Shown here: piece by piece, positions 1 to 13,199 of the stretch
How positions within the stretch are numbered: position 1 is the first letter of the stretch
Layout: every line of letters starts with the position of its first letter
Source: a virus
Taxonomy: Duplodnaviria; Heunggongvirae; Uroviricota; Caudoviricetes
Reading direction: 5' to 3' (one strand)
IMG/VR virus record: IMGVR_UViG_651053023_000013
Location: 1-13,199 of that record
DNA length: 13,199 bases
Position numbers and translations under genes: made by a program
Notes under the pieces: model-generated
Database searches by the model: none
Seen by the model: the letters and a program-made list of their open reading frames with translations, nothing else
Told to the model about the DNA's origin: nothing

Positions 1-160
1 AGTTTGCTCCTGCCATAACGTGAAGAAGCAATGACCTGGTGGTCCGTGACTTCCCTACGCTGGCATTATCCAGATCAGGTGATACGGGTATTTCTTACTG
101 ATTTTTGTTATCAGTTGATAATTAATAAGTTTTTCAGCAAACAAGAATTAAAAACTTCAA

Positions 161-184
161 AACTGACCACACAACTGACCACAC
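161..184. repeat. Perfect tandem direct repeat AACTGACCACAC x2 in an A/C-rich non-coding stretch
   Basis: Read directly: aactgaccacac at 161-172 and again at 173-184; no coding context. Confidence 0.6.
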
Positions 185-408
185 ATTTTGTTGAAGCTCT
201 ACGAACAAAGACGAACAATAACAAACAAAAGGGAAATTTGCTGGCAGTTTTGCTTAACCGTTATCATTTTTCGGCTATCCGTTATCAAGCTGGTGGATGA
301 TCACGGATAACCCGTTATGGGAATCCCCATATCGGCATCATGCCCACCAGCATGAAGTATTTTTCGCGGATGTAAAAATTTGACGGGGCGGGCGGTCCCA
401 TAAGCAAT

Positions 409-440
409 GGGGGGGTAGGGATTCCGCTCCCCCCCCTCCC
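409..440. other. G7 ... C8 homopolymer pair able to form a GC-rich stem-loop; T5 run follows about 10 nt downstream
   Basis: ggggggg (409-415) - tagggattccgct - cccccccc (429-436) - tccc, then gaatgcaattttt. Possible plus-strand intrinsic terminator or slippage-prone tract. Confidence 0.35.
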
Positions 441-474
441 GAATGCAATTTTTCTTATATATATACAAAACAGT

Positions 475-627
475 GCGGGTTATGCGGGTTAGCGGGTTAT
501 CTTCGCGTGCTAAGTATTTTTTATTCTTTAATATCAATGCGTTAAAAAATGATATGTTTGAATATTAGCCAAAACGTAACCCGCAAGACATTCAAAATAA
601 CCCGCAAATACCCCCCAAATAACCCAC
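475..627. repeat. Origin-like iteron module A: three abutting GCGGGTTAT copies, AT-rich spacer, three inverted ATAACCC(G/A)C copies at 21-22 bp phasing
   Basis: Direct copies at 475-483, 484-491, 492-500; AT-rich 501-574; inverted copies at 577-584, 597-605, 619-627. Same 9-mer and mirror-image layout as module B at 9640-9771. Confidence 0.6.
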
Positions 628-915
628 AACCCCATCAGGAAAATGGGGCCAGTGATGCCACCGAACGGCTGAATCTGGTAACGTTCTGTTGCCTGGTTGC
701 AGTTTGCGGGTCAGCAATACTGACGCACAAAGTTAGCCGTATGTGGCTGTGCGTCCACCAGCTACGCCGGAATGGGGTATTCCGTTTCAACGGAACAGGT
801 ATGACGAATATGATCGCACCTTCTCCCGAAAACGGGTTTGCCTGTTTCGGGAAAACGGGCACATGAAGCTGCATAGACATTTTCACTATTCAGGATCTGG
901 CGGGGGAGTTTCTCA

Positions 916-1085
916 ATTTCCACCGTTGGTGGAAATTAAACGAATACAGCGAGTTAGGACAAGGTGACTAATGGTCACTCTGTTGCTGCGTCACCATATT
1001 GATGATCCAGCCCTGTAGTCGCGCCACTTTTCCACCAATGGTGGAAAAGCCCACAGCAGGCCGCCCAGCCTCCCCCAATGGGGGA
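916..1085. repeat. Cluster of perfect palindromes sharing CCACC/GGTGG-type half-sites (candidate protein-binding sites)
   Basis: ATTTCCACC-gtt-GGTGGAAAT (916-936); GTGAC-aatg-GTCAC (965-978); CTTTTCCACCA-a-TGGTGGAAAAG (1027-1049); TCCCCCA-a-TGGGGGA (1071-1085). All read directly. Confidence 0.6.
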
Positions 1086-1190
1086 TTGTGGAAGAATCAA
1101 CGGGTTAGGCCTTAATCATCTGCGTAATCATAAGTAATCATAATGTTCATTCATCCAGCGCAATTTTGCGTTATCGGGAATATCAGCAAG

Positions 1191-1475
1191 TTACCGCCGC
1201 AACCGCTCCGGCTTCTTCCAGTGGTAAGTTATTTTTTCCTTCTCCCGGTACATCTCCACGCGGCGACGATATGACAACAACTCCAGAACTCTGATCCGTA
1301 TGTCGCGCATATCCACGCCGTTAAGCTCAATACCGTCACGGCGCATCACCTCAGCCACCACACGCGCGTAATTTTCGGCTATCACGCTGTCCGGCTGCGT
1401 GGCCTCCTGTTTGCCTGCTTCCTGGCTGATTCCGGTAATGCGGCGGATTATTTTTAGTAGTTCGGTTTCGCTCAC
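1191..1475 (-). CDS. Hypothetical small basic protein (94 aa) immediately downstream of the large terminase
   Basis: ORF starts with GTG 5 nt after the terL stop, with only a weak GGGG upstream; basic C-terminus; no recognisable motif. Confidence 0.35.
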   Translation of the reverse strand: MSETELLKIIRRITGISQEAGKQEATQPDSVIAENYARVVAEVMRRDGIELNGVDMRDIRIRVLELLSYRRRVEMYREKEKITYHWKKPERLRR

Positions 1476-1480
1476 TCTCG

Positions 1481-3142
1481 TTATACCCCATCAAACGCCG
1501 CAAGCCGCTCTTTGTGGCTGTCGCTCATATCGAATGCAAATTCCTCATGTTCTGCCTGGAATGTGCCAAACGCCATCAGCGCCGCAACGCTCGGGTCTAT
1601 CTTGTTGGATGATTTTTTCTTGTTCGGCTTGATATTGGCGTTCGCGTCACTCTGCATCACAACATTACTCATTGACCAGGCCAGCACCGGATCGCCACGA
1701 TGCACAATCACCTTCCGGTTAACAAAAACTTCGAACGATTTCGCCGCCGGACTGAAACGAAGGTATGTTTGCGGGAACGGCTCCACCTCAAATCCTGCCC
1801 CCTGTAGCTGCGTCCTCAGGTGCGTGGCGTTCCATGTATCGAAGCCCACCAGCCTGATATTGAAATTCTCTGCATCCGCCATGATGTCATCACGGATACG
1901 GTCATAATCAATGCAGTCACCCGGTGTTGTGCGTATCCAGCCCGCCTTTACCCACTGGCGATAGATGGCGCGGTTTTTATTGGCGGGGTTCTGTAGCTGA
2001 AACTCCGGCAGATAGTGACGGGAAACCAGCATAATCTTTTTACCGACCGGAAAGGCATAGCACACGCTGGAAATATCGCTGGTTGATGATAAGTCCAGCC
2101 CCGCGTAGCACTCCTGCCCGTATAAATCCGCCTCCGCGAACGTTCCGGCGCACTCCGCCCATGCACCGTTACCCATCCACGGCGTGGCCCCCTGACACCA
2201 GATATTGAATCGCTTGGTGAGCATTTCCACCCACTGCGACGGAATACCCCGCGCTTTCTGGATGGTTGAGGCCAGTTTTTCACGATCGACGGAAACATCG
2301 ATATTGGGATTCGCCTTTATCCACATCGCCGGATCGTCAACCTCGCTTTCATCATCCAGCTCGTAAATCAGCACGAACATGGATTCGTTCACCTCTTCAC
2401 CATCCAGTATCTGGCAGCAATAGTCGTAGTGTTGTTTACAGGCTGAAACAACGTTGCTCCCCGATGTGGTGATGGCAAATAATAACCCCTCCGGACGCGC
2501 CCCCATTCCCAGTTCAAGCGCGGAATAAACCCCGTTGTCAGGGTGCAGGTGATATTCATCCACAATGGCAAGACTCGGGTTTGTACCTTCAATGGTTGCC
2601 GCTTTTGCTGCCAGTGGCTTTAACAGGCTGTTGGTTTTCGGGTGTATCACCTTGTGTGCCTGAATATTTACCCGCTTTCGCAACGGTCGGGATAAAAGGC
2701 ACATCTGACGCGCATCATCAAACACGATCCGCGCCTGATCACGACTCACGGCGGCGGTGTAAATATCCTGCTGCCCGTTTTCCATAACCAGAAACCAGTT
2801 AGCCAGGATAGCGGCGACCGTGGATTTGGCATTTTTTCGCGGCACTTCAATGAATGCGCTGGTGTATTTGCGCCGTCCGGTGGCCTTAACCTTAAAGCCC
2901 AGGATGCACGCAAAGGCGAACTGCTGCCACGGCTCCAGCTCAATGGGGCTACCGCGCATTGCGCCTTTTACGTGCGGACACACCCTGGAAAAGGCAATAA
3001 ACCGCTCCACGACCTCCGGATCGAACGTGTAAAGGGGGTTTTCAAGGTCAGAAAAATACCGTTTAACGGCCTGTTTCAGTCGTTTACAGGCCGTAATTTT
3101 GCCGTTTTTTACGCCTTCTGCGTACTCATGCCAGGCGGTCAA
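1481..3142 (-). CDS. terL: Terminase large subunit (HK97-type, Terminase_1-like ATPase/nuclease)
   Basis: 553-aa ORF with a P-loop-like VPRKNAKST and conserved acidic blocks (LAIVDEYH, VLIYELDDESEVDD). Apparent TTG start at 3140-3142, preceded by GAGGA at 5-nt spacing and overlapping the terS stop by 17 nt. Confidence 0.9.
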   Translation of the reverse strand: MTAWHEYAEGVKNGKITACKRLKQAVKRYFSDLENPLYTFDPEVVERFIAFSRVCPHVKGAMRGSPIELEPWQQFAFACILGFKVKATGRRKYTSAFIEVPRKNAKSTVAAILANWFLVMENGQQDIYTAAVSRDQARIVFDDARQMCLLSRPLRKRVNIQAHKVIHPKTNSLLKPLAAKAATIEGTNPSLAIVDEYHLHPDNGVYSALELGMGARPEGLLFAITTSGSNVVSACKQHYDYCCQILDGEEVNESMFVLIYELDDESEVDDPAMWIKANPNIDVSVDREKLASTIQKARGIPSQWVEMLTKRFNIWCQGATPWMGNGAWAECAGTFAEADLYGQECYAGLDLSSTSDISSVCYAFPVGKKIMLVSRHYLPEFQLQNPANKNRAIYRQWVKAGWIRTTPGDCIDYDRIRDDIMADAENFNIRLVGFDTWNATHLRTQLQGAGFEVEPFPQTYLRFSPAAKSFEVFVNRKVIVHRGDPVLAWSMSNVVMQSDANANIKPNKKKSSNKIDPSVAALMAFGTFQAEHEEFAFDMSDSHKERLAAFDGV

Positions 3143-3481
3143 GCTCGTCCTCTTCCTCTGTTTCCGGTGGATTTCTGCGGCGACTTACCGGGTCAAAACC
3201 CAGCAAAGAAGCCATTTTGATCATTATTCTTTCCGCGTCAGCCTTTGCGCTCAGGGCGGGGTTTCTGCTCTCGCTGCCCTGACTGTTAACAATGCTGAAC
3301 CCGCGCGTGGCAAGGTCTTCGACGGCTTTGCGGTATATGGAGTAGTTAACGCAATAAGCTCCAGATTGCTCCAGTCGGCGGGGGTAAGGTCTTCCCGTCC
3401 GGAAAGCTGGCGCGATTTTTCCTTCCACTGCCTGACCGCGATTTCATCCAGGTAAGCGGGGGCTTTTGGTGGTCTTGCCAT
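3126..3481 (-). CDS. terS: Terminase small subunit, P27-like family, split across two reading frames (apparent -1 frameshift near 3345-3365)
   Basis: N-terminal part (ATG at 3479-3481, MARPPKAPAYLDEIAVRQWKE...LTPADWSNLEL) is in one frame and stops at 3251. The family-typical C-terminal part (AYCVNYSIYRKAVEDLATRG...MASLLGFDPVSRRRNPPETEEEDELDRLA) is in the adjacent frame and ends at 3126 overlapping terL. No slippery heptamer at the junction. Confidence 0.6.
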
Positions 3482-3599
3482 GTTCTTTTTTCGCCCAATT
3501 ATTTTCAAAAAAAATCCCGTGCACAAAAATTTGAGGAGGCGGTCGGTGTCCGGCAGGGACGGTTTGTCCTGAAAACCTCCCCCACCCCCTCTGACAGCC

Positions 3600-3785
3600 T
3601 CACCAGCGATTGCGAAAACATTCCATGACCTCGCGGTCACGGTCGGTTAATTGCTTCGCTGTGGTGCGTTCTGTGCGCCCTGTCCTGTTGGCTTTGTGCC
3701 CTGTCTCCTGTGTCTTCCATAAGTCACGCTGCCTTATCAGTCCACGTATCAGCCTGTTTTGCTCCTGTTCAGTCATCATCGCCAT
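3600..3785 (-). CDS. Hypothetical small basic protein (61 aa) between HNH and terS
   Basis: ATG at 3783-3785, 9 nt after the HNH stop; weak ribosome-binding site; no recognisable motif. Confidence 0.3.
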   Translation of the reverse strand: MAMMTEQEQNRLIRGLIRQRDLWKTQETGHKANRTGRTERTTAKQLTDRDREVMECFRNRW

Positions 3786-3796
3786 ACATCCAGTCG

Positions 3797-4210
3797 TTAC
3801 GGTGTGCCGCCCGTTCTTCCTGCTCGCGATACATGACCCGCCTTACGGTTCGCTTTCGTGGCTGGATCTTCCCGTGTCGTCTTACGGTTGTGGCACGTCT
3901 GGCACAATGCCTGGTGATTCCACTCAGGCCAGAAGAGAACATCACCGCCGCCATTGATGGGAATGATGTGATCCACCACAAGAGCTGGCGTATAAATCCC
4001 CTTAGCCAGACAACGCACGCATAACGGGTTTTTGCTCAGGTACAGGGCGCGGTATTTGTCCCACTGTCGGGAATACCCGCGCGCGCGGCGGTGTCCCCGT
4101 CTGGCATCCTCTGCACGCCATGCAGCCCGCCTGTGCTCTTCACACTTTCCGGACTTCACGCGCTTATTACAGCCCGGCTCAGTGCAGCGCCTTAATGGTT
4201 GCCACGGCAT
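3797..4210 (-). CDS. HNH endonuclease (packaging-associated)
   Basis: N-terminal Cys cluster CTEPGCNKRVKSGKCEEH, then HNH core VVDHIIPINGGGD ... WNHQALCQTCHNRKT. ATG at 4208-4210 overlaps the adaptor stop (ATGA). Confidence 0.9.
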   Translation of the reverse strand: MPWQPLRRCTEPGCNKRVKSGKCEEHRRAAWRAEDARRGHRRARGYSRQWDKYRALYLSKNPLCVRCLAKGIYTPALVVDHIIPINGGGDVLFWPEWNHQALCQTCHNRKTTREDPATKANRKAGHVSRAGRTGGTP

Positions 4211-4509
4211 CAGTACACCCCCACATCACGATAAACCGACCAGAGCGCAGAAATAGCCATAGGCAGTTCAGACTGCTCCACAGGTGAAACCGCTTCCCTG
4301 TTCTCGTACAGGAAAGCGATGTACATCAGGCAACCAACACGTATTGCCGGGGTAAATTCCAGCCCGTCTTCAAAACGTTTCCCGATATGCTTCTGGCAGG
4401 CTTCCAGCGCCGCATCGGTATACATTTTCAGAAGTTCGCCTTCTCCGGAAAAGTCATCAAGGCGAAGATGTGCCCTGACTTCATCAGGTGTAATTTTGTC
4501 TTCACTCAT
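4210..4509 (-). CDS. Head-tail adaptor/connector protein (HK97 gp6-like)
   Basis: MSEDKITPDEVRAHLRLDD...AIRVGCLMYIAFLYENRE matches the gp6-like pattern. ATG at 4507-4509 has an AGGTG Shine-Dalgarno and overlaps the portal stop by 8 nt. The tracked ORF start at 4596 is a GTG lying 95 nt inside the portal gene and is rejected. Confidence 0.7.
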   Translation of the reverse strand: MSEDKITPDEVRAHLRLDDFSGEGELLKMYTDAALEACQKHIGKRFEDGLEFTPAIRVGCLMYIAFLYENREAVSPVEQSELPMAISALWSVYRDVGVY

Positions 4510-5716
4510 CTTTTTCACCTTTAATTTCCACAGTCTGCTTCCATGCCTGGCTGAACTCGTCGCCACCTTCACGCGGCGGCATTCCCTCACGCTCACGGGC
4601 TTCGTTCGGATTCATGATCCCGTTCTTAATCCCTTTCTCATACGTGGCGTAACGTTCAGTAGGTGTGGCGCGCAGTAAATCGGCTGAATCAAACTCAACC
4701 AGATAACGGGTACCAGGTACGGGAGAAGCCACCAGCAAAGCGGCCTTGATTTGCTGTTCGAAGTTCGCCAGCCACGGACGCATTGTCATAGTCAGAAACG
4801 CGCGGCTTGCCTCACTGAAATTGCTGTAGGTGCTGTTGCTGTATTCCTGCAGAAAAATCGGCGACACGTTGAACATCCGGGCGATGTCTTCAATGGAGAA
4901 GCGACGGGAGGCCAGCCATTCCGCATCCTGGTTACTCATCCCCAGTTGCTTGTAATCCATGCCCCCTTCAAGGATTGGCGTTTTTCCGGCATTTTTCGCC
5001 CCCTTGTAGCGTTCCAGTGCGTCTAATGCCTGTTTACCTTTCACGCCGTCCAGCCATTCGCCTGACGTGATAATCCCTGCCGCCATCATGCCATCTTTCA
5101 TAATGCTGGCTCCGTGACGCTGTTGAGCAAGGCCAAGCCCCAGCGCCTCACGGCAAATCGTGATGGGGGAGCGTCCCAGAAAGCCATCATCCGAGGCATA
5201 GCGGAGATGCAGAACTTCTTCCTGTAAATACGTGCGCACCGTTCCTGTACAGGGTTCGGTGATGGTATAGCGGTATTTGTGTGCGCCTGTGCGTTCCGGT
5301 ACAACACACCCCGGCGCATAAGGATGAAGTGATTTTGGCTGACCGTCCCGCCCCCATTCAATAACCGCATAGGCGTTACCGTTCAGCAGGCAGTGACGCA
5401 TCATTGTGCGTTTAAACTGGTAAGGTGTCTGGCACGAATTAGGCTGCTCATTCAGCAGAATATCTACCGGATGACTGTCCAGCCATTCCCGCGCCTCCCT
5501 GCCCTTGTCATTACGTACCAGATACAGATAACACGGCATCGTGGCCACCGCCTCAGCGATGACGGAAACCGCGTTCATCACTGCGGGCAATGATTCAGCC
5601 GTCCCGGCAGAAACATATTCTCCGGATCCGGTATTCGGTACGCCGGACAGCACCAGAAAATCATCAATGGACAGGTTACGTTGCTCGCTTTTTTTACGAC
5701 TAAAAGGCCACCACAT
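4502..5716 (-). CDS. Portal protein (HK97 family)
   Basis: About 405 aa from ATG at 5714-5716 (MWWPFSRKK...), which follows the protease stop by one base (TGA-T-ATG). The longer tracked ORF begins at a TTG inside the protease gene. Confidence 0.85.
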   Translation of the reverse strand: MWWPFSRKKSEQRNLSIDDFLVLSGVPNTGSGEYVSAGTAESLPAVMNAVSVIAEAVATMPCYLYLVRNDKGREAREWLDSHPVDILLNEQPNSCQTPYQFKRTMMRHCLLNGNAYAVIEWGRDGQPKSLHPYAPGCVVPERTGAHKYRYTITEPCTGTVRTYLQEEVLHLRYASDDGFLGRSPITICREALGLGLAQQRHGASIMKDGMMAAGIITSGEWLDGVKGKQALDALERYKGAKNAGKTPILEGGMDYKQLGMSNQDAEWLASRRFSIEDIARMFNVSPIFLQEYSNSTYSNFSEASRAFLTMTMRPWLANFEQQIKAALLVASPVPGTRYLVEFDSADLLRATPTERYATYEKGIKNGIMNPNEAREREGMPPREGGDEFSQAWKQTVEIKGEKDE

Positions 5717-5717
5717 A

Positions 5718-6278
5718 TCACAACCCCGCCAGCTCTGCCCAGCGATGACGATTATTTCCTGCCGGGCGTAATTCAGGGTGCTGTGCAAACAACGAACGGT
5801 GGGCAATCTCCACGCCAGATTCGGGATAAGCAGGCATCGACGTGATCGTGATTTCCCTGAGTTCTGCAGCGGTAACAGTACGCAGATACGGTTTTTGCGC
5901 GATATTCCACTCTTCGCATAATGCGCGAAAGCCAAAGCTCATCCCTGTAATGTCGCCACGCTCCACCAGCGTAAGCACATCTTTTCCAAGCTGGGTATCA
6001 GGCGGTGTCAGTTCAAAACGTAGCCCGGTGTTGTCCTCAGTCAGTACCAGAGTGCCGGATTTGGTGCGCCCCAGCAGTTGGGTATAGTCATGCTCATACA
6101 GGCAGCGCACATCATTACCCGCCGCCAGATAGTCAGCAAAAGCCCCCGGCGTGAACTGTTCGCGGAATTCGTCCCAGATAATTTCTGAAAGGCTGTTCCA
6201 GCGAACGGCATACCCCACCAGCTTTTTATTGCTGGCGGTCAGTTCAGATGTGCGGATTTCAAAATCGGTGTTTTTCAT
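5718..6278 (-). CDS. Prohead maturation protease (HK97 family, S78/U35-like)
   Basis: 186 aa, placed between capsid and portal; typical HK97 protease length and sequence character. ATG at 6276-6278. Confidence 0.85.
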   Translation of the reverse strand: MKNTDFEIRTSELTASNKKLVGYAVRWNSLSEIIWDEFREQFTPGAFADYLAAGNDVRCLYEHDYTQLLGRTKSGTLVLTEDNTGLRFELTPPDTQLGKDVLTLVERGDITGMSFGFRALCEEWNIAQKPYLRTVTAAELREITITSMPAYPESGVEIAHRSLFAQHPELRPAGNNRHRWAELAGL

Positions 6279-6332
6279 CGGTGTACTCCATAAAGCTGAA
6301 AAAGGAGGCCGCAGCCTCCTCCTTACTCATGA

Positions 6333-7502
6333 CTAGCCAGCTTTCATTTCCAGAATTTTGATGGCGTTTGAATCCACCACACCACCGCCCAGATATTTAT
6401 CCGTGTGGACCTTGTAGAATCCGGGTTCAGTAATGTTGTCCGGTCGGGTGCGAATCCCTGTTACATGATCAACGATGAAATAACCACGACTGAAATCGCC
6501 AACCGCTAGCGGTGCTTTTCCTGCGCCGATGTCCGGCATGGACTCCAGGCAGAAAACAGGACGACCAAGCAACATATCCGGCGCACCTTCTTTAAGGCTG
6601 TCGCGCCAGATATAATCGCCATTCTCATTTTTCAGCTTCTGTAGTGTCCCTGCCGTGCCCGAGTTCATCACCCAGACGGCATTTTTGCGGTATTTCGCTT
6701 TCAGCTTGTAGAGAATGTCGATCAGTTCGTCCGCTGTAATGGCGGTTCCACTTGCCGCTACCACTTTTTCAATGGTGCCAAAAGCGCGGGTTTTGTCACT
6801 GGTCGCCGCACGGGTGTAAGCCATGAAGCCTTTCGGCTTGCCGTTACCGTCGCCATTAACAAAATCATCCTCTTCGGTGCTGGCGAACGTGTCGGCAATT
6901 TCGGAGGATAACCAGCCCAAAATATCCACCTCTGAAAAATCCAGGATTTCCTGCGTGGTTTTCGGGTAGGCGTAGATCTGATTCAGCTTGATGGTTACAC
7001 GTTCAATTTTCGGGGTGTTGGTTTCACTACGTGCGCTGCCTTCTGTGCCTCGTCCTACAGTTGCGCCGCCAGTGGAAACCAGTTTCTGAAACTCATTTGA
7101 TTTTGCGGTCTTCACGGTCGCGATCACGCGCATAACACTGTCATCCTGTAGCTGGCGCATGACTTCGCGATCAAGCTCAGGAATTACGGTATATCCGCCA
7201 TCCCTGCCGCTGTCAGTGCTGGTGGACAGTGATCGCACATCTCCGGTTACGATGTAGTTACGCAATTCATCAGATGATAATTTCTGGATGCCCGTTCCTG
7301 GCTTGCTGCGTTCTTCATCAGCCACAGACTCGAGGCGGTAAATTTCTGTGTCGAGGGAATCGGCTTTTGCACGCAGTTCATCAAACTGTTTGCCCTCGTC
7401 ATCGTTCAGGCTGCGGTTTTCACTGTCGGCTTTTTCCAGCAGGGATCGCATCTGGTTTTTCAGGGCGGTTTTTTGCTGGCGGAGTTCGATTAATTTCTTC
7501 AT
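6333..7502 (-). CDS. Major capsid protein (HK97 fold) with N-terminal coiled-coil delta/scaffold domain
   Basis: 389 aa; N-terminal heptad-rich region (MKKLIELRQQKTALKNQMRSLLEKADSENRSL...) followed by an HK97-type capsid body. ATG at 7500-7502. Confidence 0.9.
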   Translation of the reverse strand: MKKLIELRQQKTALKNQMRSLLEKADSENRSLNDDEGKQFDELRAKADSLDTEIYRLESVADEERSKPGTGIQKLSSDELRNYIVTGDVRSLSTSTDSGRDGGYTVIPELDREVMRQLQDDSVMRVIATVKTAKSNEFQKLVSTGGATVGRGTEGSARSETNTPKIERVTIKLNQIYAYPKTTQEILDFSEVDILGWLSSEIADTFASTEEDDFVNGDGNGKPKGFMAYTRAATSDKTRAFGTIEKVVAASGTAITADELIDILYKLKAKYRKNAVWVMNSGTAGTLQKLKNENGDYIWRDSLKEGAPDMLLGRPVFCLESMPDIGAGKAPLAVGDFSRGYFIVDHVTGIRTRPDNITEPGFYKVHTDKYLGGGVVDSNAIKILEMKAG

Positions 7503-7572
7503 GAAGGTTTTCTCGTATTGGTTAAGATTCAGGACGTGAAACCAACACGGAGGGAGCGCCGCCCGACACTCT

Positions 7573-7621
7573 CGGCATCTCGCAGATCAACCCGGCATCG
7601 CGCAGGGGGTCAGGCGGCATT
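7573..7621. promoter_or_regulatory. Three direct CGGCAT(C) repeats at 20-22 bp phasing upstream of the capsid operon (candidate activator sites for a late promoter)
   Basis: cggcatctcgcag (7573-7585), cggcatcgcgcag (7593-7605), cggcatt (7615-7621), in a GC-rich block 70-120 bp upstream of the capsid ATG. No good sigma70 -35/-10 lies between the block and the ATG. Confidence 0.35.
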
Positions 7622-7726
7622 GTGGCGGCTCACGTCTGAGTGCCACACGCCAACATATACATAAAAATCAGTATGTAAACATCAGCCAGAATCACCGAAC
7701 AACCTGGAACAACCACGAACAAATAA

Positions 7727-7757
7727 TTTACAAAACCTGAAAAAAATGGCCTATTAT
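7727..7757 (+). promoter_or_regulatory. Putative sigma70 promoter of the AT-rich accessory gene
   Basis: TTTACA (7727-7732), 19-bp spacer, TATTAT (7752-7757); AGGA ribosome-binding site 6 nt before the ATG at 7789. Spacer is longer than optimal. Confidence 0.3.
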
Positions 7758-7788
7758 TGCTACCTCTGACTACAACAAAGGACGCATC

Positions 7789-8295
7789 ATGAATTTAAGC
7801 GCAATGGTATACCCTGATACTTTCATAATTAATGGCGAATCATTTAAAGGTAAAAGAAACGCAAAAGAAAACAAGGTATTAATTCCATATACAAATGAAC
7901 CGGAAGTAACTATTGGTCAACACATTATCCAGTGTGTCGGTAAAAACGAGATAAATCTAAAAATTATAGATATGAAGTTGCTTCCCAATGGAACCCTCAG
8001 ACAGGGAACCAACCATCCAAATATGTTGACGCTCTATATTGAAAATATCACGGGAAATGAACATATGACGCCACCTAAAAGTAATACATTTAACATTGGT
8101 TCAATTAGTGGTAATCAAGTGCAGATAGGTGAGCATAACCATATGCTGGTAAACATCAGCATCACTGAACTGGTTGAAAAAGTCTCTAAATCGGGGGATG
8201 TACAAGCCAAATCAGTATTAAAGCAGTTACTGGAAAACAGTACCGTTGCCAGCATTGTTGGGGCTGGCGCAAGTGCCTTAATAGGCTTACTGTAA
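7789..8295 (+). CDS. Unrecognised 168-aa protein with C-terminal hydrophobic glycine-zipper segment; AT-rich accessory gene (moron)
   Basis: Only credible plus-strand gene inside the island. Roughly one-third GC by eye against about half in neighbouring genes. Own promoter, ribosome-binding site and terminator. C-terminal ...NSTVASIVGAGASALIGLL is a likely membrane anchor. Internal NIGSISGNQVQIGEHNH is not assignable from memory. Confidence 0.7.
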   Translation: MNLSAMVYPDTFIINGESFKGKRNAKENKVLIPYTNEPEVTIGQHIIQCVGKNEINLKIIDMKLLPNGTLRQGTNHPNMLTLYIENITGNEHMTPPKSNTFNIGSISGNQVQIGEHNHMLVNISITELVEKVSKSGDVQAKSVLKQLLENSTVASIVGAGASALIGLL

Positions 8296-8303
8296 AAAAA
8301 TGA

Positions 8304-8320
8304 CCTGGAGAAAATCCAGG
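8304..8320. terminator. Bidirectional intrinsic terminator between convergent genes
   Basis: Stem CCTGGA (8304-8309), loop gaaaa, stem TCCAGG (8315-8320). On the minus strand it is followed by T7 (complement of A7 at 8294-8300); on the plus strand by an interrupted T-rich run. Confidence 0.5.
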
Positions 8321-8331
8321 CCTTTATCGCT

Positions 8332-8580
8332 TTATTGTTTCACTGGATCCCGCATTCTGCGTCTTATTTTCCACAGATATTCGATCATCGCTTCCACCTG
8401 CTCACGATTGGTTGCGAAAATTTCCCCGGTCAGTGAGCTGCGCAGAAAATCATGATGATCCACAACAAACAACGCATCGGAAGAAAGCAGACGGCGATAT
8501 TTTTTTGCTGTCGTGGTTTCCAGATCATCAAAACCATGAAACTTTTTATGTTGCTGGACTTCTTCAAATGTCACTGGCAT
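8332..8580 (-). CDS. Hypothetical protein (82 aa), translationally coupled to the ProQ/FinO-like gene
   Basis: ATG at 8578-8580 overlaps the stop of the upstream ORF by 10 nt; no recognisable motif. Confidence 0.45.
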   Translation of the reverse strand: MPVTFEEVQQHKKFHGFDDLETTTAKKYRRLLSSDALFVVDHHDFLRSSLTGEIFATNREQVEAMIEYLWKIRRRMRDPVKQ

Positions 8581-9113
8581 GTATCCCCCTTTGCTGCCCG
8601 GCGCTGGCGCTTGTGCTTCTCATTCAGCGCCATCAGCCGCGTTTCTGCCTCCTGCTGTTCCTGTGGTGTCACTTCCCCACATGGCTGGCCTTTCAGGTCG
8701 TATCGTACCCCACCAGCAACCAGGGCGCGGTAATAGCGCGGAGACTGCGCATAAGATGCCAGCGTCGCACGTAATGCCCCCGGCCCGAATGCCAGCCCCC
8801 TGACGGCGAGATCCTGCATCAGGTCGTCGAATATCCCCACCTTAAGCGGCTTCGGTGCTTCCCTGTTGAATAAGTCAGGCCACATCTCAGTGAGGCGGTT
8901 AACGCGCCTGCGGTTTTTGCGCTGGCGTTTGGTCATATGCCGCCACGGTGTCACCCCTGTGGGCTGCCCTTTGCGGCTCTGCTGTGCGTTCTGATTGCCG
9001 GGTATCACTTTATGCGCCGATGTGGTTTTATCCCGCTCTTGCGCCGCCTGCGTCGTTTTCTGCGGCGTGCCGTAAATGCCTTTCGGTTTTCGGTTAATGG
9101 TCAGCTTTGTCAT
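8571..9113 (-). CDS. ProQ/FinO-domain RNA-binding protein with an N-terminal basic, Q-rich extension of about 75 aa
   Basis: PLKVGIFDDLMQDL...LRATLASYAQSPRYYRALVAGGVRYDLKGQPCGEVTPQEQQEAETRL aligns by eye to the N-terminal FinO domain of E. coli ProQ (PLKIGIFQDL...LRSALRLYTSSWRYLYGV...[24 protein letters not shown]). ATG at 9111-9113 with a GGGGAAGG ribosome-binding site. Confidence 0.75.
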   Translation of the reverse strand: MTKLTINRKPKGIYGTPQKTTQAAQERDKTTSAHKVIPGNQNAQQSRKGQPTGVTPWRHMTKRQRKNRRRVNRLTEMWPDLFNREAPKPLKVGIFDDLMQDLAVRGLAFGPGALRATLASYAQSPRYYRALVAGGVRYDLKGQPCGEVTPQEQQEAETRLMALNEKHKRQRRAAKGDTCQ

Positions 9114-9149
9114 GCCTTCCCCTGTAATTACTCTGTTCGCTGTTGTGAA

Positions 9150-9575
9150 TTAAAACGGTATGTTATCCCCGTACAGGTCATCGTGCTGGCCTGTCTGTTG
9201 TTTTGCCCTGTTCAGTGCGTCAGTGGCCTGCCCCTGTTGGCCTTTTTTGCCGCCCGGTCGCGCCGTTCTCGCACTGATTACGCTGTCTGCGATGACCTGC
9301 CAGCCCTGCCGCGTTTCGCCGTTCTGCCCTGTCCACTGGCTTACCTGCATGTTACCCGCCACGTTCACCAGTTCGCCTTTGCGGTGTTTTGCCAGTGCGT
9401 CGGCCTGTCTGCCAAACGCCAGGACGGATAACCACATCGTCGCCGTTCCGTCATCTGCCTGGCTGCATGGCAGGGGAACCGCCATACTCGCCATCGCCAT
9501 TTGTGTTCCCTTGCTGGTGGTCTTTAACTGCGGGTCAGCCACCAGCCGCCCGTAAGCCGCTATCTGTGCTGTCAT
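9150..9575 (-). CDS. ssb: Single-stranded DNA-binding protein (short, divergent SSB)
   Basis: 141 aa; OB-fold-like N-terminal pattern (GRLVADPQL ... WLSVLAFGRQADALAKHRKGELVNVAGNMQVSQWTGQNGETRQGWQVIADSV), Gly/Gln-rich linker and acidic tail ending DDLYGDNIPF (compare DDDIPF in E. coli SSB). Confidence 0.75.
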   Translation of the reverse strand: MTAQIAAYGRLVADPQLKTTSKGTQMAMASMAVPLPCSQADDGTATMWLSVLAFGRQADALAKHRKGELVNVAGNMQVSQWTGQNGETRQGWQVIADSVISARTARPGGKKGQQGQATDALNRAKQQTGQHDDLYGDNIPF

Positions 9576-9639
9576 GCTGTCTGCTCTCCGGTTTTAACGT
9601 TGATGGTTACGCTTGTTTACACCCTTACGGTGAAATTCT

Positions 9640-9771
9640 GCGGGTTATAATCGCACTTTTGCGGGTTATAACTGCCGTTTTGCGGGTTACGTGCGGGTTA
9701 TTGATTTCCTTTTTATTCATACAGTTAATGCACTTATATACATGATAACCCGCATAACCCGCATAACCCGC
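9640..9771. repeat. Origin-like iteron module B: four GCGGGTTA(T/C) copies at 21/21/11 bp phasing, AT-rich spacer, three abutting ATAACCCGC copies; immediately downstream of the primase-helicase gene
   Basis: Direct copies at 9640-9648, 9661-9669, 9682-9690, 9693-9701; AT-rich 9702-9744; inverted copies at 9745-9753, 9754-9762, 9763-9771. The primase stop is at 9795-9797. Confidence 0.7.
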
Positions 9772-9794
9772 AACTTTTCACCTCACACAGGGGG

Positions 9795-11918
9795 TTAATC
9801 TTCTGCCTCAGGCTGGAACATCAGCACGTAAAAAACATGCTGCTTCCCCCCAATTTTGCCGAGCGCCTTTTTCTTGTAACGGCGATCGTTACCCGCTTCC
9901 AGCATTCCGGCAGCACTCAACGCGCGGGCAAAGTGAGACGGATTAAATCCCTGTGCTATCTCACCCTCAAATACATGCGGGAACGTGTAAAAACGGAACT
10001 CGTCATCTTCGTTTCTGATACTCCCCTTTCTGTATCCGGCAAGCTCTTTAATCGGTAAATCACGCTCGTCGGTGTTGGGCCACGGAAGGTATCTGCTGAA
10101 TCCGAACGACGCTAAAAAAGCCTCTGCCTGTTCAACCATCTGTTTAAACTCCCTGTTACCCGTGCCGAACTCCTTCACCCAGGCATTAAAATTATGCTGA
10201 ATGGCATCGCGGCACGCCTGAACATCCCAACCAGTAATATGGACGGAAAGCACCAGCGCCGACTCCAGCATGGCGAATCGTTCCCCCACACGGTGAACCT
10301 GTTCGCCGTAACTCTCCGGTATCAGGTTGCGCCACCGTTCACGGCATGCCCTTACCGTATCCTTTGCCTCCTGCTGGTGGTCTGCCAGCCATTTAACCCA
10401 TTCACGCCCCGCCGCCCCGTGATTTTCTGTCCAGGCATCCTTTAACGCGTCTGCGTGTGCCTTTCCGGTGCTGTATTCGTGAAACTGCGTGGCTTTTTCC
10501 ATTGGCACGTTAAGCAGGCGGACAAGCTGCCCCGCCTTGACTTTTATCCCCTCCGTTTTGAGGAATGTCTCAACGTCCATTTCTCCGGTGCTGATTGCCA
10601 CCGTGCGCCAGTGTTTGATCTCCCTGTTGCCGCCGTCCTTCGCCCCCTGTAATTTCCCCGAACCGTTAAACAGCGTATAAGCCGACGTGGACACTTCCCG
10701 CGCGTTTCCGGCCTGACCTATTTCATCCAGGGGTAATAGCCCGTCATTGTGCGCCTCTGCCTCGTTGGCGATGCCTAACGCTGTACCGTACCAGGTCAGC
10801 CGTTGCGCGTCCGGCTCTCCCCATAAACTGGATGCGATGTTCTGTGTGGTGGTTTTCCCTGCCGATGACTGTTCGAAAAGATGTACCCCGAAGCCGTCAG
10901 CACCCACCAGCCCGATTAATGGTGCGGATAACGATACCGCCACACCCAGCATCATGGACGGATTACCACCAGCCAGCCGCGCAACGATATCGCGCCAGCC
11001 CTCCGCCGTTCCTGCCACGGAATAGCCATTAACAGCAGCCGTTTTTCCGGTAAACAGGACTGGCTTTTCGCAATCACCAATGACCGAACCGTCCGGCATG
11101 ATGTACGCGCCAAAATGCCAGCCCGTTGTTGTGCTTAACTGCCATTCCTCATGGCTTCCGCTTAACTGCATCCAGTCAGCCAGGATAGCCCTGTATTTAC
11201 CGTTGGTTGTTACGTTCAGTCCGTGGTCTTTCAGCAACCGCCAGCCGTCACGGTCGCCAATGCCACCGCACGGAACCGCCATTGTGATGACTTCATGGTT
11301 TGCTAATTTTTTCCAGCGCATCACGCGGTAATGCTCTTTACCGATTGTCCCCGTTCCCAGTAGTTCAAGCGGGGAACATAACCACGTCTCAGGCCGGATA
11401 ATTTCGCCTGACTGCTTATCCACTTTTGGCGTTACCCAGAAAACACCATCGGCGCGACTTTCAACGCGGGGCTTTAATTCATCATCGCCCTGGATTTCTG
11501 TGATTTTTTTCTTTAAGGGCAACACCAGACTTTCCCCGCGCTCGTATTCGTCTTTGAGGCGAGGCAACTGGTCGGATAAATCCGCCGGGCTGATGTCAGT
11601 TATCCCCGCGTATTCGTATACGGTCTTCACGCCAGCCACAGCCAGCAACGTGACGATCTGTGTAAGGCTACGTTCAGTGATGTGCCCTGCGCGGTAAACA
11701 CGCACACACTGACGGCTATCATCAATAATTTGATAACCGGTAATATCTTTCAGGTGTTCATCTGACAGAACGACAGGCGGCACATTGTCGGCGGCAATAT
11801 GCTTACCTGCCCATTCCTGCCACTCTTTCGCATGGCTCCACGCATCACTACCCGCAAAGATGATAACCTCCGTCATTTTGTCGGCTGGCTGGTGCTTTAA
11901 GTTTGGTGCGCGCTTCAT
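9795..11918 (-). CDS. Replication initiator: Toprim-like primase N-terminus plus DUF927/SF3-type helicase-like domain
   Basis: 707 aa; P-loop FEQSSAGKTTTQNIASSLWG and Walker B-like LLPLDEIGQAG; N-terminal region resembles a Toprim primase fold. ATG at 11916-11918 overlaps the upstream stop (ATGA). The iteron module follows directly. Confidence 0.8.
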   Translation of the reverse strand: MKRAPNLKHQPADKMTEVIIFAGSDAWSHAKEWQEWAGKHIAADNVPPVVLSDEHLKDITGYQIIDDSRQCVRVYRAGHITERSLTQIVTLLAVAGVKTVYEYAGITDISPADLSDQLPRLKDEYERGESLVLPLKKKITEIQGDDELKPRVESRADGVFWVTPKVDKQSGEIIRPETWLCSPLELLGTGTIGKEHYRVMRWKKLANHEVITMAVPCGGIGDRDGWRLLKDHGLNVTTNGKYRAILADWMQLSGSHEEWQLSTTTGWHFGAYIMPDGSVIGDCEKPVLFTGKTAAVNGYSVAGTAEGWRDIVARLAGGNPSMMLGVAVSLSAPLIGLVGADGFGVHLFEQSSAGKTTTQNIASSLWGEPDAQRLTWYGTALGIANEAEAHNDGLLPLDEIGQAGNAREVSTSAYTLFNGSGKLQGAKDGGNREIKHWRTVAISTGEMDVETFLKTEGIKVKAGQLVRLLNVPMEKATQFHEYSTGKAHADALKDAWTENHGAAGREWVKWLADHQQEAKDTVRACRERWRNLIPESYGEQVHRVGERFAMLESALVLSVHITGWDVQACRDAIQHNFNAWVKEFGTGNREFKQMVEQAEAFLASFGFSRYLPWPNTDERDLPIKELAGYRKGSIRNEDDEFRFYTFPHVFEGEIAQGFNPSHFARALSAAGMLEAGNDRRYKKKALGKIGGKQHVFYVLMFQPEAED

Positions 11919-12229
11919 TTTGCCTTTCCCCGTTCACGAATAATTTCACGTACTGCCTTAATGCGTTCCATTCCTGTAACGCGCATGATTCTGTCGATGT
12001 CGCTTAATTCTGCTGGTGGTGCTTTACTTACCAAGGTGAACTCCCTGTCAAAGCGCATATGTGACGACACGCAGGGATGCGCATAACCTTCGCGGATATA
12101 GGTCACACGAAAATCATCGACGGTTTTGATCGTTATCGTGCTGCCGTATTTATCCTGGAAAATATCGCCGGGGCGGATTTCAGGCCGAGCGGGGCCGCTG
12201 GCAGTAAAGCCAGAATTTTTCTTTTTCAT
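11915..12229 (-). CDS. Hypothetical protein (104 aa), translationally coupled to the primase-helicase
   Basis: ATG at 12227-12229 with GGAG at 8-nt spacing; stop overlaps the primase start; no recognisable motif. Confidence 0.5.
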   Translation of the reverse strand: MKKKNSGFTASGPARPEIRPGDIFQDKYGSTITIKTVDDFRVTYIREGYAHPCVSSHMRFDREFTLVSKAPPAELSDIDRIMRVTGMERIKAVREIIRERGKAK

Positions 12230-12234
12230 GTTTT

Positions 12235-12453
12235 TTACTCCAGAGGCAGCTTTTTAGCGGCGAGCTCAATATCAGATGTCAGAGAAACCTGTGTATTTGC
12301 CAGGTCTAACAACAAAGAAATAAGAATTTCTTCTCTGCTATCGGATTTATCGGTGCTAAGGCTGTTCATCCACATATTGACGACTTCCCTGATTTTTTTC
12401 GCAGAGTGCAGGGCTTCAAATGCCAGGTCTTCAATATCATGTTTATTTCGCAT
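12235..12453 (-). CDS. Hypothetical small protein (about 72 aa)
   Basis: Preferred ATG at 12451-12453 (MRNKHDIEDL...) with a GGGGG ribosome-binding site, overlapping the upstream stop by 11 nt. The tracked ORF start at 12483 is TTG. Confidence 0.4.
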   Translation of the reverse strand: MRNKHDIEDLAFEALHSAKKIREVVNMWMNSLSTDKSDSREEILISLLLDLANTQVSLTSDIELAAKKLPLE

Positions 12454-12805
12454 AATCGCCCCCGCCATTTTCACAATCAGCAATCAGGATGGCTTTTGCC
12501 TCATTCAGCGCCATATCAGCACTAAATTGCATAACAGCCAGTGAGTGAGGAACGAAAGCCCCGGCATATTCTGTTTCGCTGGTGGCCTCAATGGTAATCA
12601 CACGCGGTTGTGCCGTGCTCAGGGCGATAAAACGCCAGATGTATTTATTCAGGTTGTGCAAGTCCCGCCCTTGCGGGTGTGTGGTATGATTTAACATAGC
12701 TACCTCGATAATCTTGCTATCGTTGGTGGTTAGAAGCCCGGTTAGTGTTAGCGCACTGCCGGGTTTCGTCGTTTGTATTTCAATAAAACCATTGGTGTGT
12801 TTCAT
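12443..12805 (-). CDS. Hypothetical protein, first gene of the replication-side operon (120 aa from ATG 12805; alternative start 12697 gives 84 aa)
   Basis: ATG at 12803-12805 sits inside an operator-like inverted repeat and has no Shine-Dalgarno. An internal ATG at 12695-12697 has a GAGGT ribosome-binding site. The tracked extension to 13186 is Ser/Thr-rich and antisense to the plus-strand regulator. Confidence 0.45.
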   Translation of the reverse strand: MKHTNGFIEIQTTKPGSALTLTGLLTTNDSKIIEVAMLNHTTHPQGRDLHNLNKYIWRFIALSTAQPRVITIEATSETEYAGAFVPHSLAVMQFSADMALNEAKAILIADCENGGGDYAK

Positions 12806-12875
12806 GTTATTTTGGAGTGAAACACACGTCAAGCCTTTTTTGTATTTCTTTTTTGTGTATACTGAAACACACCAA
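12792..12875. promoter_or_regulatory. Divergent control region with three copies of TGAAACACAC (one inverted, two direct) and a -10-like TATACT
   Basis: GTGTGTTTCA (12795-12804, overlapping the minus-strand ATG), TGAAACACAC (12818-12827) and TGAAACACACCAA (12863-12875). The first and third share 13 bp in opposite orientation. TATACT at 12858-12863. Confidence 0.5.
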
Positions 12876-12893
12876 ATTTGAGGAGTTTCAGTT

Positions 12894-13199
12894 ATGGCGA
12901 CTACCAACAAAAACGCTAAATCACAATTGACCACCGTCAGAGTCCCCCACGATGTTATGGAGGGCATGGAATCCGTAAAACTGGACGGCGAAAGCAACGC
13001 CGGATTCATAGTAACCGCCATGCGCGGTGAGATCGCCCGCCGCCAGGCAGAAGGAAGCGGAGAAAATCCCCTGGTTTCTTCGCTCGATGCACTGGCGCAG
13101 GTGGAAAAAATTGGAGTCAAGGCTGCCGAGGAGATCGGGCAACTCGTCGCCGTCGCGCGTGAAGAACTCCAGCGCCGCAAGGCCAAAGAATCAGAATAA
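12894..13199 (+). CDS. Putative ribbon-helix-helix-type DNA-binding regulator (101 aa), divergent from the replication operon
   Basis: Strong ribosome-binding site GAGGAG (12880-12885), 8 nt before the ATG. N-terminus LTTVRVPHDVMEGMESVKL...NAGFIVTAMRGEIARRQ fits a beta-strand/helix/helix pattern; helical C-terminal extension. Fold assignment is by pattern only. Confidence 0.45.
   Translation: MATTNKNAKSQLTTVRVPHDVMEGMESVKLDGESNAGFIVTAMRGEIARRQAEGSGENPLVSSLDALAQVEKIGVKAAEEIGQLVAVAREELQRRKAKESE

Follow-up and report, generated by a model that had tools for sequence, protein, structure and literature searches.

What is a single AT-rich gene doing between the replication module and the head module of a phage satellite? 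The gene in question lies in a 13,199-nt stretch of viral DNA (IMG/VR record IMGVR_UViG_651053023_000013, positions 1 to 13,199; hereafter the window), which is identical to part of the Escherichia coli UMNF18 chromosome. Its product is a 168-amino-acid (aa) protein, WP_001053661.1, encoded by an open reading frame (ORF) that begins with ATG and is present both in the ORF list and in RefSeq. A preliminary description of the window, made from its letters alone, had proposed an acquired single-gene cargo with a hydrophobic C-terminal end; it overlooked the modular build of the protein, a RHIM-like motif within it, the life of its relatives as integron cassettes, and a two-gene form of the insert. 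The reading that we favor, which we consider possible although somewhat short of probable, is that the gene product acts on its own against phages, by abortive infection or exclusion, and that it is activated conditionally through a RHIM-like switch for homotypic assembly.

A cargo gene in a variable slot

That the gene is a moron, i.e., a horizontally acquired piece of accessory cargo, is strongly supported, because it occupies a sharply bounded AT-rich insertion. When the window is aligned to the islands of O177:H21, FDAARGOS_1249, and EDL933, all of which are without the gene, the insertion appears as one unbroken gap of 555 bp made up of 42 nt, the ORF, and then 6 nt, located between the terminator of the replication module and the upstream region of the capsid operon (Table 1). 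The insert has a GC content of 37.5% versus about 53% in its flanks, and the ORF itself has a GC content of 37.3% with 36% at third codon positions (GC3), whereas both flanking modules have 53% GC and a GC3 of 56-68%. The location between the two modules, which agrees with the Pfam matches and the RefSeq gene order, the marked AT-richness, and the moron status had all been put forward in the preliminary description, and all of them stand.

The presence and absence of the gene among related islands point in the same direction. A survey of 5,426 complete E. coli genomes found both flanks of the slot in 131; about 80 of these have nothing in it and 51 have this gene. A further 20 E. coli genomes have a two-gene insert, consisting of a gene A (254 aa) followed by a gene B (169 aa) that is 64% identical to the protein studied here. 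Outside E. coli, B alone fills the slot in Kluyvera, in Pluralibacter, and in a Klebsiella "plasmid" of about 17 kb that resembles a circularized island, and the A+B pair fills it in Enterobacter soli, Klebsiella, Citrobacter, Kosakonia, Yersinia, and Pectobacterium. Because the slot is variable in this manner (empty, one-gene, or two-gene), the gene belongs to the accessory cargo of the island rather than to its core machinery. The comparison of allelic islands thus bears out the earlier suggestion of a variable cargo slot, in which this gene is not fixed.

The host island measures about 15 kb and lies between thiM and rcnR in the RefSeq annotation. Its minus-strand set comprises an integrase, a helix-turn-helix regulator, an Icd-like protein, a DUF4222 protein, a DUF927 primase/helicase, a single-stranded DNA-binding protein, a ProQ/FinO protein, and an 82-aa ORF, and its head module, per Pfam and RefSeq, comprises an HK97-type capsid protein, a prohead protease, a portal, a head-tail connector, an HNH protein, TerS, and TerL. 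No tail genes were found from thiM to rcnR in the Pfam matches or the RefSeq annotation. Because an integrase, regulators, a primase module, and the island's own capsid and terminase set are combined here with no tail genes, the island is, as judged by gene content, a capsid-forming phage-inducible chromosomal island (cf-PICI). For cf-PICIs, the literature that we searched describes no cargo hotspot at the junction of the replication and capsid modules, and the slot defines one, with empty, one-gene, and two-gene states.

The signals attributed to the gene fare unevenly. The good ribosome-binding site is there, as AAGGA placed 6 nt before the ATG. Promoter-like hexamers can also be read, but they form only a weak candidate promoter: the candidate -35 element TTTACA is in backbone DNA common to the empty islands, only TATTAT is inside the insert, the 19-nt spacer is suboptimal, and no plus-strand sigma-70-like site reaches the threshold of the promoter scan. 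Likewise, the hairpin described as the gene's terminator exists, but it belongs to the backbone, because it is found at empty sites too. It is scored as a terminator on the minus strand only, with the plus-strand T-tract interrupted and a fold z-score of -1.5, and it may double as a bidirectional stop for the cargo gene. The gene was also said to be the only plus-strand gene of the island, which holds between the replication and head modules but not for the island as a whole, where a YlcI/YnfO-like gene starts at 12894 on the plus strand and another plus-strand gene lies beyond the window.

A near-direct repeat, CTGAAAAAAATG (window 7737-7748) and CTGTAAAAAAATG (8290-8302), borders the insert. 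This repeat could mediate gain and loss of the gene through short-homology recombination; the empty sites resemble the predicted product of such recombination, though not exactly. An Rfam scan of window 7300-8700 returned nothing credible.

Table 1. Features of the cargo gene, its product, and its integron-borne relatives; positions are those of the window unless locus numbers are given.
Feature	Position	Strand	Basis or remark
Cargo coding sequence, 168 aa, WP_001053661.1	7789-8295 including stop	+	ORF list, ATG start; RefSeq
AT-rich cargo insertion, 555 bp	7747-8301	+	unbroken gap versus empty-slot islands
Shine-Dalgarno sequence AAGGA	7778-7782	+	read from sequence
Weak candidate promoter: TTTACA (7727-7732), 19-nt spacer, TATTAT (7752-7757)	7727-7757	+	read from sequence
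Hairpin GACCTGGAGAAAATCCAGGCC	8302-8322	unspecified	backbone; replication-operon terminator on the minus strand
N-terminal domain, small β-barrel, aa 1-92	7789-8064	+	presumed sensor/specificity module
RHIM-like β-segment, aa 101-125, FNIGSISGNQVQIGEHNHMLVNISI	8089-8163	+	Pfam PF12721, PDB, conservation
Two amphipathic helices, aa ~125-149, with D137, A140, K141, L144	8161-8235	+	AlphaFold2, conservation table
C-terminal Gly/Ala/Ser-rich hydrophobic helix, aa 151-168, candidate membrane-inserting glycine zipper	8239-8292	+	hydropathy, conservation
Integron-cassette loci (13 species)	L012, L013, L018-L023, L025, L029-L032	gene's strand	core site and attC

The modular protein and its RHIM-like segment

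We generated a predicted structure of the protein with AlphaFold2 from a 46-sequence alignment (mean predicted local distance difference test score, pLDDT, 78.5). Residues 1-90 form a confident all-β domain, and residues ~101-125 form a poorly defined β-hairpin (pLDDT 51-64) with the hydrophobic/polar alternation typical of β-strands; two helices (125-149) and a terminal helix (151-167) complete the model. Over 150 family members, the residues I103, Q112, G114, N117, D137, A140, K141, L144, N150, T152, G158, and L168 are conserved at 95-100%, with I103, Q112, G114, and N117 at 97-100% and G158 at 100%. Residues ~98-168 make up a conserved C-terminal module that is found behind at least 33 unrelated N-terminal regions among the representative clusters, a modularity which, from sequence, is the pattern of exchangeable sensors on a constant module. 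The many alternative N-domains carried by one conserved module form a natural library of candidate sensors. As for fusions, the 326-aa protein P0123 has the target's N-domain followed by a GNAT acetyltransferase, probably from read-through into a neighboring cassette, and the 334-aa protein P0135 has the same N-domain followed by an unrelated 240-aa tail. A second homolog search, made with the module profile, retrieved only short fragments and no informative fusions.

The N-terminal barrel could conceivably serve the satellite rather than the host, by satellite-helper interference: it would mimic a neck (stopper/head-closure) protein and cap helper heads, sparing tails for the capsids of the island. 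The gene does adjoin the capsid operon, and the element that carries it relies on tails that it steals (10.1101/2025.02.11.637232), but we consider this highly unlikely. PilZ and split-barrel folds score nearly equally for the domain, Foldseek searches against PDB and BFVD produced nothing significant, and hhalign against a cf-PICI head-closure protein gave a probability of 0.3%. Furthermore, most loci of the family are integron arrays or chromosomal islands without capsid genes, the gene is absent from most related islands, and neck mimicry would leave the C-terminal module unexplained. Two other fold assignments were tried and rejected. PilZ found no Pfam match, and its RxxxR and DxSxxG elements are in the wrong order by inspection. 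A CsrA-like fold for residues ~98-139, prompted by a PDB match at E 0.1 and a weak NCBIfam csrA match for P0148, had an hhalign probability of 9.9%, and the RNA-binding Arg is not conserved.

In place of the absence of any assignable motif that had been reported earlier, residues ~101-125 turn out to hold a RHIM-like segment. When 28 module sequences were scanned singly against Pfam, the commonest match was RHIM (PF12721, gathering cut-off 20 bits), which was retrieved by 6 of the 28 with a best E of 4.3e-6, and two full-length homologs exceed the cut-off (P0197 at 24.9 bits and P0172 at 20.3 bits). A search of 177,635 PDB chain sequences with the module profile placed two RIPK1 RHIM amyloid-core peptides, 8ib0 and 9m6m, as the two best matches. 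According to published work (Dyrka et al., 10.1101/2020.01.06.895854), a G-φ-Q-φ-G signature unites RHIM, the amyloid motif of animal necroptosis (RIPK1/RIPK3/ZBP1/TRIF), with the PP motif of fungi and the BASS3 motif of bacteria. Because φQφG and the following Asn are present in our protein with the first Gly displaced, the segment is, going by its motif, RHIM-like and not a member of the RHIM family. Weak matches to a second model of an amyloid-signaling motif, HET-S (PF17108), land on this same β-motif and not on the terminal helix, and HET-S was therefore dropped as a marker for that helix.

Amyloid-signaling pairs were originally defined by a short β-motif common to adjacent genes, and the two-gene form of the slot has this arrangement. 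Gene A (201-255 aa) stands immediately upstream of the homolog (L004:3263-4027; L016; L034-L044) and has a different N-domain, which is common to the integron-type proteins P0158 and P0203, with the same FNI...φQφG..N motif and the same helices. This sharing of the motif between A and B is seen at 8 adjacent-gene loci in 7 genera. In 7 of the 8, the terminal hydrophobic helix of A is replaced by a polar tail, and in Yersinia the helix is kept. The slot in the window holds a lone gene with no adjacent partner sharing the motif. A search of PADLOC-DB v2.0 with gene A and 8 N-domain variants gave no match at E <= 1, except for one at E 0.05.

The hydrophobic, Gly/Ala-rich end that was noticed in the preliminary description is confirmed. 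The sequence TVASIVGAGASALIGLL at the C-terminus is the sole strongly hydrophobic stretch of the protein, with a Kyte-Doolittle value of 1.91 over 17 aa and 1.48 over 19 aa, and the protein ends exactly at this helix in 112 of 150 members (75%). Small residues at 154/155/158-163/166 and hydrophobic residues at 153/156/157/164/165/167/168 give it a small-xxx-small face. The helix has 16-17 apolar or small residues, where spanning the bilayer takes about 18-22, and a Hessa-scale sum of about +1.4 kcal/mol. Because it is this short and marginally hydrophobic, we regard membrane anchoring as plausible and nothing firmer, and a constitutive tail anchor would be no more likely than conditional insertion.

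Constitutive anchoring is what a different explanation would need, namely superinfection exclusion by a protein anchored through its tail in the inner membrane that blocks DNA entry or a membrane step, with φQφG..N acting as a β-hairpin oligomerization element and no amyloid switch. The position of the helix at the extreme C-terminus with no signal peptide fits this explanation, as do the prophage moron positions on the strand opposite to the late genes. In addition, promoterless cassettes are expressed from the integron promoter Pc, so steady-state production must be tolerated, and integron defense cassettes containing transmembrane (TM) helices have been proposed to interfere directly with infection (10.1101/2024.07.02.601719). 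Nevertheless, exclusion of this kind seems unlikely to us, with the helix being short and its insertion energy positive. It also leaves unexplained the swapping of N-domains on one conserved module, the helix-less partner that shares the motif, and the extreme conservation of Q112, G114, and N117.

Distribution of the family and features of the host island

The target's only database family match is PHROG 5789 (function unknown), at E 3.5e-86; it has no match in Pfam, NCBIfam (2026), or PADLOC-DB v2.0 (none at E <= 1 in the latter). Pfam, PADLOC, PHROG, NCBIfam, PDB, and fold searches did not match it confidently to any structural or housekeeping family, no paper mentions WP_001053661, and the family is undescribed in that it has no name in the papers or databases searched. 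An exhaustive search of 1.84 billion representative proteins returned only 114 clusters. The full-length relatives are all 165-171 aa long, and homologs of the same length with 48-90% identity occur in Gammaproteobacteria and in metagenome-assembled genomes (MAGs) of Campylobacterota, Thermodesulfobacteriota, and Kiritimatiellales.

A species-level genome scan yielded 20 loci, of which 3 are cf-PICIs and 13 are integron cassette arrays, the remainder being other contexts. The arrays are hosted by Shewanella, Marinomonas, Marinobacterium, Vreelandella, Pseudomonas, Azomonas, Thiopseudomonas, and gammaproteobacterial MAGs. At these loci the ATG is preceded, at a distance of 22-35 nt, by an R' core site, G|TTATGC, and the stop codon is directly followed by an attC site (GCATAACAA ... 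GCGTTAT). From 13 such attC sites we built a covariance model, replacing three over-strict home-made detectors that had found almost nothing; it gave 55 matches, 54 of them on the gene's strand and all confined to the cassette loci. These recombination sites mark the family as a genuine integron cassette in 13 species. In Marinobacterium (L019), the homolog appears to be the first cassette, standing next to an integrase-like gene directly upstream whose product is a divergent tyrosine recombinase (Phage_int_SAM_4 and Phage_integrase), and the Vreelandella array (L020) has two family cassettes. The same covariance model found no attC in the window, and the copy there is therefore not an integron cassette. 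Paralog arrays beside the gene in Shewanella were looked for, and none were found.

The remaining contexts are prophages and islands. At the end of a Pseudomonas P2-like prophage, the homolog is near a weak HEPN RiboL-PSP-domain protein, an S8 peptidase, and a D12 methylase, and in other islands the neighbors are a KAP NTPase or a DUF5677 protein together with a YhcG nuclease. We count this defense-type company (HEPN RiboL-PSP, S8 peptidase, D12 methylase, KAP NTPase, DUF5677, and YhcG) in favor of an anti-phage function. Other homologs come from MAGs of Sulfurimonas, Helicobacteraceae, Thermodesulfobacteriota, and Kiritimatiellales. No recurrent neighbor or partner gene was found outside Enterobacterales among the 20 species-level loci, which speaks for a single-gene unit.

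Distant homologs (27-30% identity) are lambdoid morons in two phages, beside lysis and terminase genes: in Escherichia phage vB_EcoM-689R6 the gene comes after Rz, and in Cronobacter phage ENT39118 it is between Q and the lysis genes. Being adjacent to lysis cassettes in both phages and ending in a hydrophobic helix, the protein could be thought of as a lysis-timing accessory (holin-, antiholin-, or spanin-like) for the lysis program of the helper. We consider this the most improbable of the explanations raised here, because of the integron and non-phage contexts of the family; moreover, the ENT39118 homolog is on the strand opposite to the lysis genes, and the protein has neither a holin-like topology nor a charged C-terminal tail.

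Overall, the distribution strongly supports the family spreading as a bare ORF among integrons of marine and environmental Proteobacteria, cf-PICI slots of Enterobacterales, and P2-like and lambdoid prophages, and across phyla. The crossing of one ORF family between integron arrays, satellites, and prophages illustrates in a concrete case the exchange of small accessory genes between mobile elements of different kinds. When integron cassettes of unknown function were tested, at least one third proved to be phage-defense genes, and about one third of those have TM helices, with homologs outside integrons lacking attC (10.1101/2024.07.02.601719). No peptide of our family is present in the supplements of two integron defense screens (10.1101/2024.07.02.601719, 10.64898/2026.03.17.712381).

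These same contexts would also suit a non-defense accessory role, such as a membrane or stress adaptor, a toxin-like addiction element, or another adaptive function in the niches of defense genes. Most integron cassettes and morons are functionally unassigned, with only a fraction of them being defense genes (10.1101/2024.07.02.601719; 10.64898/2026.03.17.712381), the N-domain remains well conserved even between distant phyla, as would be expected for a conserved cellular ligand, and there is no similarity to a defense family in PADLOC-DB v2.0. Still, such a role is doubtful, since no antitoxin-like partner is present, defense-type neighbors are, and modularity of the sensor-plus-effector kind is typical of conflict systems. 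The lambdoid moron positions of the distant homologs and the satellite cargo slots of full-length ones also speak against it.

Several further features of the host island and its relatives deserve mention. Two Klebsiella records (CP018459.1, locus L046, and NZ_CP069874.1), each 16-17 kb long and submitted as a non-mobilizable plasmid, contain a capsid gene, an integrase gene, and the homolog, and by this content they look like circularized cf-PICIs. The 106-kb "Klebsiella phage P12620-1" (PQ569648.1, locus L007) has a cf-PICI-like segment with the homolog. In the window itself, RefSeq/PGAP flags the P27-family small terminase and the HNH endonuclease as frameshifted (window ~3126-3481 and ~3769-4210; L001 5627-5982 and 6270-6711), and this satellite copy may therefore be packaging-defective. 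In the replication module, a ProQ/FinO-domain protein (RNA-chaperone fold) at window 8571-9113 has a 10-nt overlap with the 82-aa ORF. The ~1.2 kb from thiM to the first island gene (window 1-1190) has short overlapping ORFs with one 89-aa hypothetical protein annotated, and presumably holds the attachment-site end of the island.

Beside the slot, the sequence GAACAA(CC/AT) occurs three times with exact 10-bp phasing, starting at 7697, 7707, and 7717 (window 7697-7746). The ~50-bp element around this triple repeat has only two mismatches in the otherwise diverged intergenic region of the EDL933-type cf-PICI, and about 330 additional E. coli genomes contain a match to it. Read on the minus strand, it stands just upstream of a promoter-like site (7679..7652) that precedes the capsid operon, which makes it a candidate activator-binding site for the packaging operon.

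Proposed function and relation to known systems

The conditionally activated anti-phage protein that we favor would work in three steps. First, the exchangeable N-domain, here a small β-barrel, would recognize an infection-associated ligand or assembly. Recognition would then raise the local concentration of the φQφG..N β-segment, which we liken to the RHIM/BASS3 amyloid-signaling core, and drive homotypic β-assembly. Finally, assembly would bundle the C-terminal Gly/Ala-zipper helices, whose insertion would permeabilize the inner membrane and stop the infected cell. The outcome might be either that the cell is killed or arrested, i.e., abortive infection (Abi), or that a membrane step of infection is blocked. 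Where gene A is present, it would act as an extra sensor that templates B. Two published findings serve as precedents: amyloid-motif signaling governs Abi in the Bab/Agp system of E. coli (10.1101/2024.11.07.622273), and compact defense genes, often with TM helices, are abundant among integron cassettes (10.1101/2024.07.02.601719). We infer the sensing, the assembly, the membrane action, and the anti-phage phenotype from sequence, predicted structure, and context, and for the anti-phage role it is the context that speaks.

A number of points weigh against this proposal. As for the motif, the target itself scores 16.2 bits (E 0.0079) against PF12721, under the 20-bit cut-off, and the PDB matches to the RIPK1 peptides (IQIGNHNYM versus VQvGneNtq) have an E of ~0.5, which is not significant alone. 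In the target, S-G-N-Q-V-Q-I-G, the first Gly is two residues further off than in G-φ-Q-φ-G. Because the motif model is short and N/Q/G-rich, the similarity may also be driven by composition. The partner motifs of A and B have no obvious co-variation. The architecture is unlike that of every validated amyloid-signaling system in having no NLR, no Bell/HeLo domain, and a central motif, and it differs further in having its hydrophobic helix at the C-terminus and all of its parts in one small protein. The N-domain is ~50% identical across phyla, a degree of conservation that would be unusual in a sensor directed at rapidly evolving phage proteins. The terminal helix, with its marginal length and insertion energy, could instead be a buried oligomerization helix. 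Finally, neither PADLOC-DB v2.0 nor NCBIfam 2026 offers a match for the target, and integron cassettes and morons carry many non-defense functions too.

A more specific form of the proposal would make the protein an all-in-one prokaryotic RHIM-type switch, with an exchangeable sensor, an amyloid-forming segment, and a glycine-zipper helix that together carry out necroptosis-like Abi by self-templated polymerization. This version, which is unlikely as it stands, would include the two-gene sensor/effector form and would have the switch travel as such through integrons, satellites, and prophages. If it were true, RHIM-like death signaling would reach unicellular Proteobacteria and mobile elements without NLRs or Bell domains, and the family would be one of the smallest defense units known. 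If the proposed three-step mechanism holds, the family would offer a minimal, portable model of amyloid-type death signaling, with sensor, switch, and executioner in 168 residues and tractable in E. coli, and it would link animal necroptosis motifs, fungal prion signaling, and phage defense more directly than NLR/Bell pairs do.

As cargo, the gene resembles the accessory genes of other satellites and prophages (PICI and P4 hotspots) in being a discrete AT-rich insert at a fixed site between modules, with presence/absence and allelic variation. The insert in the window differs in being unusually minimal, with little beyond the ORF itself. As cassettes, the family members resemble the bacteriophage-resistance integron cassettes (BRiCs): they consist of one ORF in a compact cassette of ~600 bp, their attC is canonical, the integrons that house them are sedentary chromosomal ones, many have a TM-type helix, and, as for BRiCs, homologs outside integrons are without attC (10.1101/2024.07.02.601719, 10.64898/2026.03.17.712381). 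The copy in the window, having no attC, differs from them in not being a cassette.

At the level of the motif, the closest likeness is to RHIM, PP, and BASS3, with a φ-Q-φ-G core and then N at +3 (VQIGEHN in the target, IQIGNHN in the RIPK1 peptide of 8ib0). BASS3, however, has been described only in NLR/Bell pairs of multicellular Actinobacteria and Cyanobacteria (10.1101/2020.01.06.895854), whereas the target family is found in unicellular Proteobacteria, on mobile elements, and without an NLR. No NLR or Bell domain was found in the protein or its neighbors, and the motif is internal rather than at the N-terminus of an NLR or the C-terminus of a Bell/HeLo effector.

The nearest system in E. 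coli is Bab/Agp, an Abi system of strain ECOR25 controlled by amyloid-motif signaling through the BASS11 motif (Ibarlosa et al., 10.1101/2024.11.07.622273). Our family differs from it in being without the TPR-GreA/B-C-PIN sensor and without the Bell/Babybell domain, and no TPR, GreA/B-C, or PIN protein is adjacent to the cargo gene in the RefSeq annotation. Its helix is C-terminal and not N-terminal, its motif is central and not terminal, everything is in one 168-aa protein, and its motif, as far as could be judged, is nearer to RHIM/BASS3 than to BASS11. On the other hand, both are E. coli genes on mobile elements, and both have a short (~20-25 aa), Gly/Asn-punctuated β-motif joined to a compact helical region, in which a Gly-containing hydrophobic helix is the element proposed to attack the membrane. 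The likeness extends to the A+B form of the slot, in which, as with Bab and Agp, one motif recurs in both of two neighboring genes.

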